Of a stretch of DNA of 64,000 nucleotides, positions 40,106 to 44,654 are shown piece by piece. Under the pieces are notes generated by a model. That model was given only the letters and a program-made list of their open reading frames with translations, was not told the DNA's origin and did no database searches. The DNA is taken from assembly GCA_964635055.1 (NCBI GenBank), contig CAZWMT010000006.1, positions 70,896 through 134,895 of the forward strand, written 5' to 3'. The position numbers and the translations under genes were made by a program. This stretch comes from an uncultured Microthrixaceae bacterium (GTDB lineage: Bacteria > Actinomycetota > Acidimicrobiia > Acidimicrobiales > DATDAH01). How positions within the stretch are numbered: position 1 is the first letter of the stretch; each line of letters opens with the position of its first letter.

Positions 40106-41176
40106 ATGGCACCGGTGAACCTGCGCTTCTGCTTCTACAACGCGTTCCTGTTGCGGGCGGGGCGGCTGCCGTTGCCCGGGCCGAAGCGCTTCCTCCACTC
40201 GGTGCCGGCGGTCGACGCCCGGGCGGCCGAGTTGGGGCGGCGGTTGGCCGGACGGTACGACGTGGCCGCCCTGTGCGAGGTGTTCGACCAGTCCGAGCGA
40301 CGGGCGATCATGGCGGGGTGGTACCGGCGGGACCGAGGAGGCGACCGCGGCGGCGGAGGACGGGCCGGGCACTGGAGCCGTGGTGGGCGGGGGCGCCGAC
40401 CCCGGCTGCGCACCGCCTCGGGCCCGCCGGTGCTCACCGGGCGGATGCCGCTGGTGAAGACCAGTGGCCTGCTCACGGTGGTGGACGGCCCGCGGGTGGC
40501 GAGGACCGCCACCCACCTCTACCGGGTGCGGGGCCACCGGTTCCTCGACGCCGACGCGTGGGCCAACAAAGGGGCGTTGCTCGTCGAGGTGGACGTCGGT
40601 GCCGGCGCCAACCTCGAGGTCTACAGCACCCACCTGATCTGGGGTGGCGACCTGCTGTTCCGCCGTGAGCGAGGCCATCGCTCGGCGGTGGCCGACTACC
40701 GCCAGGCGCAGGCCCACGAGTTGCTCGACTTCGTCCGGCGGACCCACGTCGACGGCAACGCCACCCTGATCGTCGGGGACTTCAACATCGATGCCCTGCA
40801 TCCCAGCCCCGCGTACGCGGACCTGACCGCGGCGATGGGCGACGCCGGCTTCGACGACGTCTGGCTCGAGCACGGTGTCGGCCCGGGCTACACCTGCGAC
40901 GCCCGGGAGTTGGGTGACGCCATCGCTGTGCCCGACCCTGCCGACCCCGACCTGTGCCTGGACCGCGACGGCGCTGACGCCCCCGAGATCACCGAAGCCG
41001 CGAAGCGCATCGACTTCGCGTGGCTACGCCGTCCGGGCACGGGCGACGGCGTGGCCGTGGAGGTGGCGGCGATGCGCCGTGCCTGCTTCCCTCGCACCCC
41101 GGGGGTCGAGGGCTACGACGACCTGCCGTACCTGTCCGACCATCTCGGCCTGCACCTCGAGCTCATCCTGTCCTGA
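40106..41176 (+). CDS. Endonuclease/exonuclease/phosphatase (EEP; sphingomyelinase-like) family protein
   Basis: 'DVAALCEVF', 'TLIVGDFNIDA' and terminal 'LSDHLGLHLEL' are classic EEP blocks. There is a Gly/Arg-rich insert near aa 70-110. Confidence 0.75.
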   Translation: MAPVNLRFCFYNAFLLRAGRLPLPGPKRFLHSVPAVDARAAELGRRLAGRYDVAALCEVFDQSERRAIMAGWYRRDRGGDRGGGGRAGHWSRGGRGRRPRLRTASGPPVLTGRMPLVKTSGLLTVVDGPRVARTATHLYRVRGHRFLDADAWANKGALLVEVDVGAGANLEVYSTHLIWGGDLLFRRERGHRSAVADYRQAQAHELLDFVRRTHVDGNATLIVGDFNIDALHPSPAYADLTAAMGDAGFDDVWLEHGVGPGYTCDARELGDAIAVPDPADPDLCLDRDGADAPEITEAAKRIDFAWLRRPGTGDGVAVEVAAMRRACFPRTPGVEGYDDLPYLSDHLGLHLELILS

Positions 41177-42290
41177 CCCGTTGGCGGACGAGGGCCAGTG
41201 CGGCGGCGGGCAGGAGCACGGCGACGGCCAGTACCGCGAGAGGGGCGAGCCACGGCGCGAAGGGGCCCGCCGGCCGGTCGTCGACCGCGGGTCGCGCCGG
41301 GTGCAGTGCGGCGGCGGCGGTGACCGCCGCGTCCGCGTCCACGAGGCCGGCGCCGAGCCGCGGGTCGTCGTCGGGGTTGCGGGCGGTGGTGATGAGCGTC
41401 TGGCGGACCTCGTCGGCCGAGAGGCCCTGGGCGAGGAGCAGGGCGGCGACGCCCGAGACGTAGGCCGCCGACATCGAGGTTCCGTCCATCGTCTCGTAGC
41501 CGTCGGTGCCGGTCGGCCACCGCATCGTGGGCGCGCGGGGGGCGGACGACACGATGTCGGTGCCCGGCGCCGCCAGCGCGCTGGGGTCGCCGAAGGTGGT
41601 GAAGGGCGCCGGGTTCCCCGAGCGGTCGGTGGCGTTCACCACCAGGACGGGCACGGTGGGCCGGTACGCATCCTCGTCGATGGCCTCGTTGCCGGCCGCG
41701 GCCACCACGACCACCCCCCGGGTCACCGCGTTGCGCACCGCTCGGCTGAGCGGCCCGTTCTGGAAGAGCGCAGGAGCGAGACCGTCGCCCCCGAGTGAGA
41801 GGTTGACCACCCCGGCCCCGTGGGCGACGGCCCAGTCGACGCCGTCGGCGATGGTGCGAGGTGACCCCGACCCGTCGGTGCGCAGCACCCGGATCGGGAG
41901 CAGCCGCGCCTCGGGTGCCGCGCCGGTGACCCCCTCGCCGTTGCCGCTCGTGGCCGCGGCGATCCCGGCCACGTGGGTGCCGTGTCCGTTGGGGTCGTCG
42001 GGGTCGTCGTCGCCGTCGACCAGGTCGACACCCGGCTCGACGTGGTCGATCAGGTCCGGGTGGGTCGGGTCGACACCGGTGTCGACGATGGCGATCAGCT
42101 GGCCGGCGCCGCGGGTCTGGGCCCACGCCTGGGGCAGGTGCAGGGCGTCGAGTGCGTACTGCTCGGACCGCAACGGATCACCGGCACGGCTGCGGCTGTC
42201 GAAGCGCCCGGTGCGGGCGGGGGCGGGCGTGGCGAGGAGGAGCAGCCAGATCGCAGTGACGAGCAGCGCCGAGGCGAGCCGACGGCCCAT
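41163..42290 (-). CDS. S8 (subtilisin) family serine peptidase with signal peptide and C-terminal TM anchor
   Basis: Triad blocks 'AIVDTGVDPTHPDL', 'HGTHVAGIAAA', 'GTSMSAAYVSGVAALL'. C-terminus 'WLAPLAVLAVAVLLPAAALALVRQRVRTG'. Overlaps the convergent EEP gene by 14 nt. Confidence 0.9.
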   Translation of the reverse strand: MGRRLASALLVTAIWLLLLATPAPARTGRFDSRSRAGDPLRSEQYALDALHLPQAWAQTRGAGQLIAIVDTGVDPTHPDLIDHVEPGVDLVDGDDDPDDPNGHGTHVAGIAAATSGNGEGVTGAAPEARLLPIRVLRTDGSGSPRTIADGVDWAVAHGAGVVNLSLGGDGLAPALFQNGPLSRAVRNAVTRGVVVVAAAGNEAIDEDAYRPTVPVLVVNATDRSGNPAPFTTFGDPSALAAPGTDIVSSAPRAPTMRWPTGTDGYETMDGTSMSAAYVSGVAALLLAQGLSADEVRQTLITTARNPDDDPRLGAGLVDADAAVTAAAALHPARPAVDDRPAGPFAPWLAPLAVLAVAVLLPAAALALVRQRVRTG

Positions 42291-42358: not shown

Positions 42359-42586
42359 TCAGGCGGCCTCGGAGCGGCGTGCCGGGTGGTCGTCCGCGAC
42401 GTCGACGTCGGCTCCGGGACCTTCCGCGGCGCCGGTGCGGGCCTCGCGAAGCTGGTCGAGGAGGCGCTCCCAGCGCAGCTCACCGGCCAGCCAGGCCGCC
42501 GCCTCCCGACGGCTGCTCTCGGGGGAGTTCGTGATCGTGTTCACAACCTCGACCGTACAGACGAGAACGCGTTCTAGTTCGGTCAT
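42359..42586 (-). CDS. Small hypothetical protein (75 aa), upstream of S8 peptidase
   Basis: ATG start and mostly G/C third positions. It lies 68 nt upstream of, and co-directional with, the S8 gene. No recognisable motif. Confidence 0.4.
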   Translation of the reverse strand: MTELERVLVCTVEVVNTITNSPESSRREAAAWLAGELRWERLLDQLREARTGAAEGPGADVDVADDHPARRSEAA

Positions 42587-42737: not shown

Positions 42738-42941
42738 TCAGGCGGCGTCGCCTGCGGAGGGGAGGCGGACCGACGTGGCCGGGCTGACCCAACGCACCTC
42801 ACCCGTCTCCGACACCTGCAGCCGTCGATCTTGCAGCAATGCCCCCTTTGCGATCAGCGTGGAAACTCGAGGCACCATCTCATCAGCGACGTGCTTGTCG
42901 CCGATCAGAAGGTGCGTCCCCTCCTCTGTCCGCGTGTTGTC
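42738..42941 (-). CDS. Small hypothetical protein (67 aa)
   Basis: 'MDNTRTEEGTHLLIGDKHVADEMVPRVSTLIAKGALLQDRRLQVSETGEVRWVS...'. About 80% G/C at third positions, in a locally less GC-rich stretch. Followed by the strong hairpin. No SD and no family recognised. Confidence 0.35.
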   Translation of the reverse strand, partial: DNTRTEEGTHLLIGDKHVADEMVPRVSTLIAKGALLQDRRLQVSETGEVRWVSPATSVRLPSAGDAA

Positions 42942-43149: not shown

Positions 43150-43347
43150 ATGAGCGAAGCCGACAACCTGACAGGGCGTGAGCGGGCCGTCGTCGCGGCC
43201 GTCGCCGCGCTGATCGCGGTGCTGGCCATGCTGCGGCCGACCCCGTCGCTGGGCGACCAGGACGACCGCGTCGACGTCGTGCCGATCGACGCCACCGCGC
43301 TCAGCGGCGCCGGCCCGCGCGCCTCGGCGGCCCCGTCTGCGGGCTAG
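43150..43347 (+). CDS. Small membrane protein (65 aa)
   Basis: '[30 protein letters not shown]...'. One TM helix and near-saturated GC3. Its end overlaps the convergent gene by 4 nt. Confidence 0.45.
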
Positions 43348-43871
43348 CCCGCGCGGTTGCGCCGCTTGCGCCGTAGCGCCCAGCTGAGCGCGAACAGCAC
43401 CGCGGTGAGGGCCACGCCGATGCCCACCTTCTTGGCGGGCCCGGACCTGGCTGCGTCGTCGCGGGGGCTGGGCGCCGTCGTGGCGCCGGAGGCGGGCACG
43501 GGGGCGGCCCCGGTCGTGACCGGCTCGGGCTCGGCGACCGGCTCGGCCTCGGGCTCCGCGACAGCCTCGGGCTCGGCGACAGCCTCGGGCTCGGCGACAG
43601 CCTCGGGCTCGGCGACAGGCTCTGGCTCTGGCTCTGGCTCTGGCTCGGGCTCGGGCTCGGGCACGGCGAGAGCCTCGGCGGCCGGTTCGGATTCGGCAAC
43701 CAGCTCGGGTTCGGGCTCGGCGATCGTCTCGGGCTCGGCGACCGGCTCCGGGTCGTCGGCCGCAGGGTCGGAGTCGTCGGCGGCGACGTCGAGCAGGTCG
43801 TCCACGGGTGCGGGCTCGTCGCTCGCCGGCTTGGGGCGGGCGTGGCCCTTCTGGGGGTCGTAGGTGGCCAT
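43344..43871 (-). CDS. Acidic, Pro/Glu/Ala repeat-rich protein with C-terminal TM anchor (tail-anchored), ParA-associated
   Basis: The start is 7 nt after the ParA stop. 'AEPEAV' x4 and 'EP' x8 repeats. It ends with '[27 protein letters not shown]'. Confidence 0.7.
43558..43660. repeat. In-frame coding tandem repeats: 18-mer (GCGACAGCCTCGGGCTCG) x3 then hexamer (GGCTCT/GGCTCG) x7
   Basis: Read directly: 18-mers at 43558, 43576 and 43594, and hexamers over 43617-43658. Confidence 0.9.
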
Positions 43872-43877
43872 CTGCTG

Positions 43878-44654
43878 CTAAGTGTGGTCGGGGACGACCT
43901 GGCCGAGCAACGTGGCGAACTCCGCGGCCGCGGTGTCGGCCCCGGGGCGGTGGCCGAGCGCGTGCAACGGCATCGACTGCGCCGACGCCTCGGCGATGGC
44001 CGCGCGCAGGTGGATCGGGCCGAGCACGAGCGGGCCGTACGACTCCACGAGCTGGTCGTGCCAGTAGCGGGCGTCGCGGGTGCGTCCCAAGCGGTTCACC
44101 ACCACGCCTGCGGTGGTGAGGTCGATGCGCTGGCGCTCGCGCACCCGGTCGATGGTGCGCAGCATCTGGGCCACACCGTCGGAGGCCCAGGCGGCCGGCT
44201 CGCTGACCACCACCACCCGGTCGGCGGCGACCAGCCCGTTGACCGTGAGCAGCCCCAGCGACGGCGGGCAATCGATGATGACGAGGTCGTGGGGGATGCC
44301 CTTGAGGGCGGTGCGCAGCCGGTCCTGGGCACCCACTGCGTCCGTGGCCAGCTGCAGCTCACGCCCGGCCAGGGCCGGCGTGCTGGGCGCGACGTCGGGC
44401 ACCGTGCCCTCGCCACCGGGCCATGCGGCAGGGATCACGACACGCTCGAGGCCACCGGGCTGGTCGACGGCCAACGCGTCGTCCACCGTGGTGGACGCGT
44501 CCCACACGCCGAGACCCGTGGTGGCGTTGGCCTGGGGGTCGAGGTCGACCACCAGCACCCGCCGGCCCTGGAGGGCAGCGGCGGCGGCGAGTCCGAGGGC
44601 GACGGTGGTCTTGCCCACCCCACCCTTCTGGTTGGCCACGGCGAGGACCGGCAT
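43878..44654 (-). CDS. ParA/Soj/MinD-family P-loop ATPase
   Basis: Deviant Walker A 'VANQKGGVGKTT', 'VLVVDLDPQANAT', 'DLVIIDCPPSLG'. 258 aa. Confidence 0.9.
   Translation of the reverse strand: MPVLAVANQKGGVGKTTVALGLAAAAALQGRRVLVVDLDPQANATTGLGVWDASTTVDDALAVDQPGGLERVVIPAAWPGGEGTVPDVAPSTPALAGRELQLATDAVGAQDRLRTALKGIPHDLVIIDCPPSLGLLTVNGLVAADRVVVVSEPAAWASDGVAQMLRTIDRVRERQRIDLTTAGVVVNRLGRTRDARYWHDQLVESYGPLVLGPIHLRAAIAEASAQSMPLHALGHRPGADTAAAEFATLLGQVVPDHT

Follow-up and report, generated by a model that had tools for sequence, protein, structure and literature searches.

A stretch of 64,000 nucleotides (the window) from the genome of an uncultured Microthrixaceae bacterium was analyzed (contig CAZWMT010000006.1 of assembly GCA_964635055.1; C6:70896-134895 in our numbering; genome of 6.24 Mb in 100 contigs). 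Positions below are those of the window unless another contig is named. The minus strand of the window encodes a ParA-type ATPase of 258 amino acids (aa) at 43878..44654, followed by the gene of a 175-aa acidic, repeat-rich protein at 43344..43871, which we call the partner. These two genes form a self-contained ParA/partner module that is specific to the class Acidimicrobiia. The ATPase clade, which is restricted to this class, and its family of membrane-anchored, disordered partners are new; systems made of a ParA and a small partner are known as a type.

The pair is conserved in relatives. In 41 related genomes, ParA proteins at least 60% identical to that of the window had the partner gene directly behind them in 19 of 19 loci. 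Two genera of the family are represented among these loci, as are four other families of the same order; one locus was cut by a contig end and one was interrupted by Ns. At the class level, 301 genomes were scanned with the N-terminal motif of the partner (N-motif). The motif was found in 15 genomes, and a ParA gene lay just upstream in 14 of 14 loci besides that of the window. The GC content of the class-level loci ranged from 0.42 to 0.73. The motif was present in families f25 (9/9), f32 (2/2), f57, f60, and f50, and was missing from most other families of the class (f7, f22, f37, f40). The pair also occurred in L068-L071 and in the cultured strain Rhabdothermincola salaria (GCA_021246445.1, L117); an ATPase orthologue is also named from R. 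sediminis. Whether the small open reading frame (ORF) is kept beside ParA homologues had been raised as a check in an earlier reading of this DNA (the original prediction), and the 19 relatives and 14 class-level loci gave a positive answer.

The spacing of the two genes was compared in 38 distinct pairs from several orders of Acidimicrobiia. The commonest distance from the ParA stop to the partner start was −1 nt (15 pairs), and 34 of the 38 had an overlap or a gap of at most 12 nt. The flanks varied: one lineage had ferrochelatase, a PD-(D/E)XK protein, and gyrB there, a second had AhpC with a response regulator, and Rhabdothermincola had Nramp. As the flanking genes differ between lineages, the conserved unit is the pair itself. 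When 251 Actinomycetota genomes were searched, only three ATPase matches at E ≤ 1e-45 were obtained, all in one Acidimicrobiia family, and none came from the approximately 230 genomes of other classes. A scan of 400 Actinomycetota genomes gave no N-motif match in the approximately 370 that were not Acidimicrobiia.

At the locus itself, the observation in the original prediction was confirmed, since all its main points were present in the sequence and only small corrections were needed. The 258-aa ORF with KGGVGKT was found at the expected place, and so was the acidic 175-aa ORF downstream, with its single transmembrane (TM) helix and RRKRRNR end. No helix-turn-helix (HTH) or ParB family matched the small ORF, as had been claimed. 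The spacer between the ParA TAG stop and the partner ATG is CAGCAG, 6 nt long (43872..43877, minus strand), rather than 7 nt, and the two ORFs share one reading frame. No Shine-Dalgarno sequence was found in this spacer, and a promoter and terminator scan around the operon found nothing. The repeats are real. AEPEAV was counted three times instead of four and EP dipeptides 20 times instead of eight, and the DNA repeats, placed at 43558-43660 before, extend over 43518-43678. The convergent 65-aa gene overlapping the partner end was also present, with stop codons overlapping in CTAG.

We considered that the locus might be an ordinary or artefactual case, with the ATPase being the chromosomal Soj whose ParB is encoded elsewhere, or the small ORF being a chance frame in GC-rich repeats. 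High-GC genomes contain many spurious ORFs, and the center of this one is of low complexity. The GC contents at codon positions 1, 2, and 3 were 0.84, 0.56, and 0.90 for the partner, similar to 0.78, 0.51, and 0.93 for ParA. Within the genus, the N-terminal 30 codons of the partner carried at least as many synonymous as non-synonymous changes. Together with a canonical parAB adjoining dnaA and rsmG on contig C2 and 372 family representatives with conserved ends (both described below), these results refuted both forms of this explanation, whose probability we regard as negligible.

The ATPase matched Pfam AAA_31 (1.2e-41) and CbiA (1.3e-26), and it reached no cut-off of the NCBIfam equivalog models. 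Its 3D structure was modeled using AlphaFold 2 (AF2), with a predicted local distance difference test score (pLDDT) of 85-97. A Foldseek search of the PDB with this model gave Thermus thermophilus Soj (2bej) as the best match, with a template modeling score (TM-score) of 0.87. It was followed by ParA 8ray (0.86), Helicobacter pylori Soj, the Mycobacterium smegmatis ParA-like protein 4pfs, and McdA (6non, 6nop). The MinD structures 1hyq and 1ion ranked lower (0.75-0.77). Sequence identity to T. thermophilus Soj was 38%. Among 37 orthologues, the Walker A residues K10 and K15 (K10-GGVG-K15-T), the switch I residues D37-L-D39-P-Q, the Walker B residue D128 (LVIID128CPP), and R191 were invariant. 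R191 lies in NRLGRTRDA and aligns with the 'GRT' arginine of T. thermophilus Soj; we take it to be the equivalent of Bacillus subtilis Soj R189, the non-specific DNA-binding residue. Judged by the modeled fold, the ATPase is a ParA/Soj-type (type Ib) deviant Walker A ATPase, nearer Soj than MinD.

A MinD-like reading was rejected on the Soj-like fold and on the score of the ATPase against TIGR01968 (minD_bact), 25.5 bits versus a cut-off of 212.9. No protein of the genome reached the family cut-off for MinD. A defense-system reading was rejected as well; in PADLOC, the ATPase had only weak P-loop matches, and the partner had none.

The ATPase is not the chromosomal Soj. The only ParB_N match of the genome is at C2:39472-39756, directly after the canonical ParA. 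Both rsmG (C2:37.8 kb) and dnaA (C2:33.3 kb) precede this canonical parA-parB, and the order dnaA-rsmG-parA-parB thus sits on contig C2. The window ATPase is 41% identical to the canonical ParA of its own genome. In a maximum-likelihood tree, 37 partner-linked ParAs were split from 29 canonical ParAs of the class by a 100/100 branch. The one exception was a very long-branched third paralogue of uncertain position. A search for a canonical parAB elsewhere in the genome had been proposed in the original prediction, and its outcome, with the tree, places the window ATPase in a separate clade.

Two side observations concern the ATPase family. A third ParA paralogue, neither canonical nor linked to a partner, is present in several Acidimicrobiia families (G043, G064, G046, and others). 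Its identity to the canonical ParA is 40-46%, and L026 may belong to this kind. The tryptophan residues W51, W78, W156, and W198 were invariant across the 37 aligned partner-linked ParAs, which also share an insertion of about eight residues (AWPGGEGT). None of the four positions is a tryptophan in the canonical ParA of the genome. These tryptophans are candidate partner-binding surface residues.

The partner can be divided into four parts, all encoded on the minus strand. Residues 1-30 (43782..43871) are a conserved N-terminal peptide, delimited by alignment and AF2. It contains YDP, a basic cluster (K8/R12/K14), and a short PVDDLL helix (PVDxLL in the family). Residues 31-148 (43428..43781) are an acidic, Pro/Ala-rich linker that is predicted by AF2 to be disordered. 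Residues 149-166 (43374..43427) form a hydrophobic helix, assigned as transmembrane by hydrophobicity and AF2. Residues 167-175 are a polybasic tail, RRKRRNRAG, recognized by its excess of K/R after the TM helix (43344..43373 with the stop codon). The isoelectric point (pI) of the protein is 4.06; it has 32 Pro residues, and all its 40 D/E residues are within residues 1-150. In the AF2 model, residues 1-20 had pLDDT 72-77 without regular structure, and a short helix followed at residues 22-32. The linker had no secondary structure (pLDDT about 50-58), and a C-terminal helix spanned residues 151-173 (pLDDT 90-94). Searches of Pfam and NCBIfam with the partner gave only low-complexity matches (PARP repeat, TonB spacer), both under cut-off. 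The N-terminal motif was unique in the genome (E 1.7e-14, next match 0.15).

The N-terminal peptide also resembles part of the ATPase. Partner residues 4-32 (43782-43871) align without gaps with ATPase switch I residues 38-66 (44457-44543), with YDPQ-x15-VDDLL in the partner and LDPQ-x15-VDDAL in the ATPase. MAFFT made this alignment twice. The same ungapped alignment was given by hhalign, but with P 0.1 and a probability of 0.6%, and a hidden Markov model (HMM) of the peptide had no match to ParA in the genome. The resemblance could be due to chance, an old partial duplication, or mimicry; the peptide as a copy of ParA is unproven.

The small ORF is a real, previously unnamed gene family. A search of 5.8 billion proteins with it returned 26 clear homologues of about 100 aa, from Acidimicrobiales metagenomes. 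Their N-terminus and C-terminus were nearly invariant, and the acidic linker between was unalignable. With a profile built from more distant members, 174 clusters at 90% identity were retrieved. When 1.84 billion representatives (50% identity) were scanned exhaustively with the HMM, at least 372 matched at E ≤ 1e-3, including 124 at E ≤ 1e-10. The best 150 of the 372 had lengths of 88-202 aa; almost all of them aligned over the whole chain starting at residue 1, and none was fused to another domain. No Pfam or NCBIfam model covers the family, and named entries read 'hypothetical protein'; one entry from the Joint Genome Institute (JGI) is labelled 'MYXO-CTERM'. The signature derived from 62 diverse members was M-x(1,2)-Y-[DN]-P-x3-[RH]-x-[RH]...[AS]-P-V-D-x-[LIF]-L. 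In these members Y4, P6, V23, D24, and L27 were invariant, and D5, Q7, R12, P20-P22, and L26 were at least 90% conserved. The family layout is an N-terminal peptide of about 27 residues, a variable disordered spacer, a C-terminal hydrophobic helix, and a polybasic end. Among the 128 members first analyzed, a C-terminal 19-residue window had a Kyte-Doolittle value above 1.6 in 128/128, and the linker was net negative in 128/128 (mean −8).

The length and sequence of the linker vary freely across the family. In the window copy it contains AEPEAV three times, VAEPEA four times, and 20 EP dipeptides, with (EP)7 as the longest run. The DNA coding for the (EP)n and VAEPEA units was resolved by Tandem Repeats Finder as period 18 at 43518-43678 (8.6 copies, 77% matches) and as period 6 at 43522-43666 (24 copies). 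Partners within the genus were 97-175 aa long; the window copy is the genus maximum seen and is near the top of the family range. In the nearest species, whose ParA is 95% identical, the partner has 158 aa and a different set of PE repeats, indicating that the repeat region expands and contracts. The length variation foreseen in the original prediction is thus seen, between species.

Some linkers had other compositions. In five of 250 family representatives (P0362, P0395, P0290, P0297, P0347) it carried runs of (A/P/V)KK(A/S) repeats, and the segment from the N-terminal peptide to the TM helix contained 17-27 Lys/Arg. Another partner with Lys-rich repeats was found behind a ParA of the same clade in L032 (4001-4593), a locus of the metagenome-assembled genome BC1.42. 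The latter gene is split by a 1-nt frameshift within the repeats, which may be an assembly error or a real break. Histone H1 and actinobacterial HupB typically have repeats of this (A/P)KK(A) kind in their DNA-binding tails. In family f25 (L043-L047, L037, L040, L117:3933-4385; including R. salaria) the linker is not PE-rich. It consists of three to four acidic, strand-like repeats of approximately DADVEIxxxGDDVVVxT, which might form a small β structure.

Our best reading is that the two proteins are a dedicated pair of a ParA and its partner. The partner would touch the ATPase with its N-terminal peptide and be anchored in the membrane by its C-terminus. We give this reading about an even chance of being right. 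The ATPase would form ATP-dependent dimers on nucleoid DNA, as Soj does. The partner would be held in the cytoplasmic membrane by its C-terminal helix, with the N-terminal part in the cytoplasm. Its peptide, with the basic cluster and the PVDDLL helix, would dock on the ParA dimer and cause it to hydrolyze ATP and be released; ParB, MinE, McdB, and PomX act in this way through their own N-terminal peptides. With the long spacer as a leash, the peptide could reach the nucleoid surface from the membrane. The outcome would be a dynamic chromosome-membrane link in a lineage without a Min system. Such a link might either place the membrane protein and any bound cargo relative to the nucleoid, or hold the nucleoid to the envelope. 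In the ParA/MinD partners characterized so far, the part that binds the ATPase is an N-terminus that is disordered and carries positive charge (10.1101/2022.06.09.495121). Both the peptide-ATPase interaction and the stimulation of the ATPase are predicted from such comparisons.

In a variant of this reading, the pair would be a minimal system for positioning between nucleoid and membrane, and the partner itself would be the cargo. A gradient of ParA on the chromosome would carry this tail-anchored tag along the membrane or space it there. Envelope sites (division, wall growth, secretion) could thereby be marked relative to the nucleoid in the Min-less Acidimicrobiia, including the filamentous Microthrixaceae. 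Members with Lys-rich linkers would tether DNA to the membrane directly. We regard this variant as possible and clearly less probable than the general reading.

Several points weigh against the dedicated pair as we read it. For an AF2 run, the two ORFs were joined as in a natural read-through, with TAG taken as Q and an alignment of ParA rows only. The ATPase was well folded, and the peptide had pLDDT < 50. The partner peptide is slightly net negative (+3.7/−4.4), unlike the strongly basic tails of ParB and McdB. DNA binding by the ATPase is something we infer from homology alone, and no cargo or phenotype is attached to the pair. Three further points concern the membrane orientation. The number of K/R residues after the TM helix averaged 5.2, versus 1.8 before it, and the excess was present in 128/128 members. 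From these charges, the positive-inside rule predicts that the N-terminus is outside (N-out) in all 128. SCO2900 of Streptomyces coelicolor, which has 110 aa, no signal peptide, and a TM helix followed by four basic residues, was reported to be N-out by protease protection (Craney et al., PMC3087755); its layout is similar to that of the partner. In addition, a cytoplasmic N-terminus (N-in) leaves the role of the conserved poly-Arg end, which would be outside the cell, unexplained.

The term 'tail-anchored' in the original prediction implies a cytoplasmic N-terminus. A C-terminal TM helix and a basic end are present, but the charges flanking the helix predict the opposite orientation, which makes the term provisional. 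If the N-terminus is out, the partner would be a signal-less reverse anchor. The acidic Pro-rich part would span the wall, the peptide would be displayed outside, and the poly-Arg end would be cytoplasmic. ParA could then contact the basic tail, or act only indirectly, e.g. by placing the protein along the cell. The acidic (EP)n spacers resemble the envelope-spanning rod of TonB, although the NCBIfam match is weak (E 0.002) and far under cut-off, and the JGI annotation calls its member MYXO-CTERM-like. When sorting signals were inspected, the TM helix and the basic cluster were present in the partner, and an N-terminal hydrophobic signal, LPXTG, and a PEP motif were absent. The missing signal peptide speaks against export, as does the conserved basic cluster at the very start of the protein. 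Export is hard to imagine for those members whose linker contains 17-27 Lys/Arg. An N-out topology would also put the membrane between the most conserved segment of the protein and its only conserved neighbor, and known ParA partners use N-terminal peptides. The Lys-rich linkers of six members (the five representatives and L032) argue for N-in and, by their sequence, look made for DNA. We consider the external display of the peptide unlikely, though a serious alternative, and favor N-in over N-out to a moderate degree.

A different possibility is that the small protein shares an operon, and perhaps a pathway, with the ATPase and is not its direct partner. The ATPase would then have its true activator elsewhere (ParB, a DivIVA paralogue, or a Tat/secretion component), as has been proposed for PldP of Corynebacterium glutamicum. 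For this orphan ParA no adjacent partner has been described, and its effect on TatA dynamics is indirect (10.1101/2025.07.02.662783). Five DivIVA-family matches are present in the genome of the window, and the AF2 fusion gave no docking signal. On the other hand, all 37 partner-linked rows of the tree are on one side of the 100/100 branch, and the partner gene was next to 0/29 canonical ParAs. Stop/start overlaps are the rule in the 38 pairs, the pair is kept while its flanks change, and neither gene was met alone. Mere co-expression appears improbable in view of this linkage.

The ATPase could also be a Get3-like chaperone that captures and delivers the hydrophobic tail of the partner, making the partner a client and not a regulator. 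In favor of this, the deviant Walker A fold is common to ParA and Get3/ArsA, and the partner, which lacks a signal peptide, carries its TM helix near the C-terminus. Matches to Get3/ArsA models were limited to the P-loop (residues 10-50), far under cut-offs; the ArsA_ATPase match spanned residues 10-43, and NosAFP gave E 1.9e-4, also far under its cut-off. The fold superposed on Soj over its whole length (TM-score 0.87). Get3 needs a helical, Met-rich, TM-binding subdomain inserted in the ATPase core. In the AF2 model, residues 3-263 are taken up by secondary-structure elements, and there is no space for a large extra subdomain of this kind. A chaperone would also leave the invariant N-terminal peptide unexplained. 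The Get3-like reading was rejected on the P-loop-only matches and the Soj fold, and we give it a very small residual probability.

The dedicated pair was compared with known systems. ParABS systems (T. thermophilus Soj 1wcv, 2bej, and 2bek; H. pylori Soj-DNA-Spo0J 8jmj) have the same ATPase fold and motifs, and there too the partner gene is directly downstream of the ATPase gene. The N-terminal basic residues followed by a hydrophobic-Asp-x-Leu-Leu helix are comparable to the ParB of the same genome (MATRKGGLGRGLGALIP). The partner peptide is like the GLGRGLxAL peptide of this ParB in pattern, not in sequence. A difference is that the partner ends in a membrane helix and has no HTH, ParB/CTPase domain, or DNA-binding fold, so no centromere is implied. 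Another is that the ATPase belongs to a clade apart from the chromosomal ParA and coexists with a full ParABS.

The McdA-McdB system likewise combines a ParA-type ATPase with a small, mostly disordered partner without a known fold. The sequence of the partner varies widely in both, and the N-terminal contact region is conserved. McdB, however, is soluble and N-terminally basic, binds carboxysome shells, and has a coiled-coil core, whereas the window partner is acidic (pI 4.06) and membrane-anchored and has no coiled coil in its AF2 model. No organelle or carboxysome genes were found near the pair. MinD-MinE is similar in that a small activator gene lies behind the gene of a deviant Walker A ATPase, and the N-terminal region of the activator contacts the ATPase dimer. 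MinD itself attaches to the membrane, by an amphipathic helix at its C-terminus, and MinE is soluble; in the window pair these roles would be exchanged. The model of the window ATPase ends in ordinary Soj-type C-terminal helices, not in an amphipathic targeting helix of the MinD type.

In function, the closest counterparts of the partner are HubP/FimV of Vibrio and Pseudomonas. These proteins cross the membrane once, have a long cytoplasmic region that is acidic and rich in repeats, and recruit ParA-type ATPases such as ParA1, ParC, and FlhG (PMC8789113, PMC12918733). The original prediction had called a membrane-tethered disordered partner unusual; such a precedent for acidic membrane recruiters of ParA (PMC12918733) limits this claim. 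A TM helix and acidic repeats are shared. HubP/FimV differ in being very large, with periplasmic LysM, an N-proximal TM helix, and C-terminal FimV/TPR, and in not being encoded beside a ParA gene. No sequence similarity between the partner and HubP/FimV was found, and no LysM or FimV domain was found in it by Pfam.

PldP and the M. smegmatis protein (4pfs/5ihp) are, like the window ATPase, second actinobacterial ParAs alongside ParAB, and they are linked to membrane or division processes. The window ATPase matched 4pfs with E 1.5e-28, but it is no closer to these proteins than to Soj (103 versus 111-119 bits). The scpA gene of the genome is on contig C5, apart from the contigs with any ParA-like match, and the window ATPase is thus not in a PldP-type context. 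SCO2900 and SCO7133 (PMC3087755) resemble the partner in having about 100 aa, no signal peptide, and a C-terminal TM helix with a few basic residues. The conserved residues reported for SCO2900, P29, R34, and P37, are unlike those of the partner family. Homology to SCO2900 or to other actinobacterial tail-anchored proteins was rejected, as the N-motif had no match outside Acidimicrobiia in the 400 Actinomycetota genomes scanned.

Many ParA/MinD ATPases are called 'orphan' because their partners are too diverse to be recognized (10.1101/2022.06.09.495121). Here, strict synteny assigned a partner family to one orphan ParA clade. The putative architecture of the partner, in which a disordered leash ties a docking peptide to the membrane and no cargo-binding domain is present, is undescribed in the literature searched. 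If the peptide activates the ATPase, the pair would couple chromosome and envelope in a poorly studied, Min-lacking actinobacterial class that includes relatives of the sludge-bulking Microthrix. The system might then also be of use as a very small, portable positioning tag. As the pair is present in the cultured strain R. salaria, it is open to experiment.

The neighboring genes were less conserved than the pair. The convergent small membrane protein gene at 43150..43347 (plus strand; 65 aa, or up to 120 aa if it starts from 42985) overlaps the partner stop by 4 nt, and its third-position GC content is 0.94. Its product shares 90% identity with the counterpart in the nearest species and 41-49% with those in the rest of the genus, and it was not found beyond the genus. 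It is a genus-level neighbor and not part of the conserved module. Downstream of the pair on the minus strand, a 67-aa ORF at 42738-42941 (MDNTRTEEGTHLL...) is 75-97% identical across the genus. A 75-aa ORF at 42359-42586, also on the minus strand, is conserved in the genus and weakly in the sister genus, and it had no Pfam family. In the family, these two ORFs lie between the pair and an S8 protease. This S8 subtilase, at 41163-42290 on the minus strand, has a TM helix at its C-terminal end, with basic residues after it. In several Microthrixaceae genomes (L018, L020-L024), though not in other families, it comes after the pair, and it is outside the conserved module.

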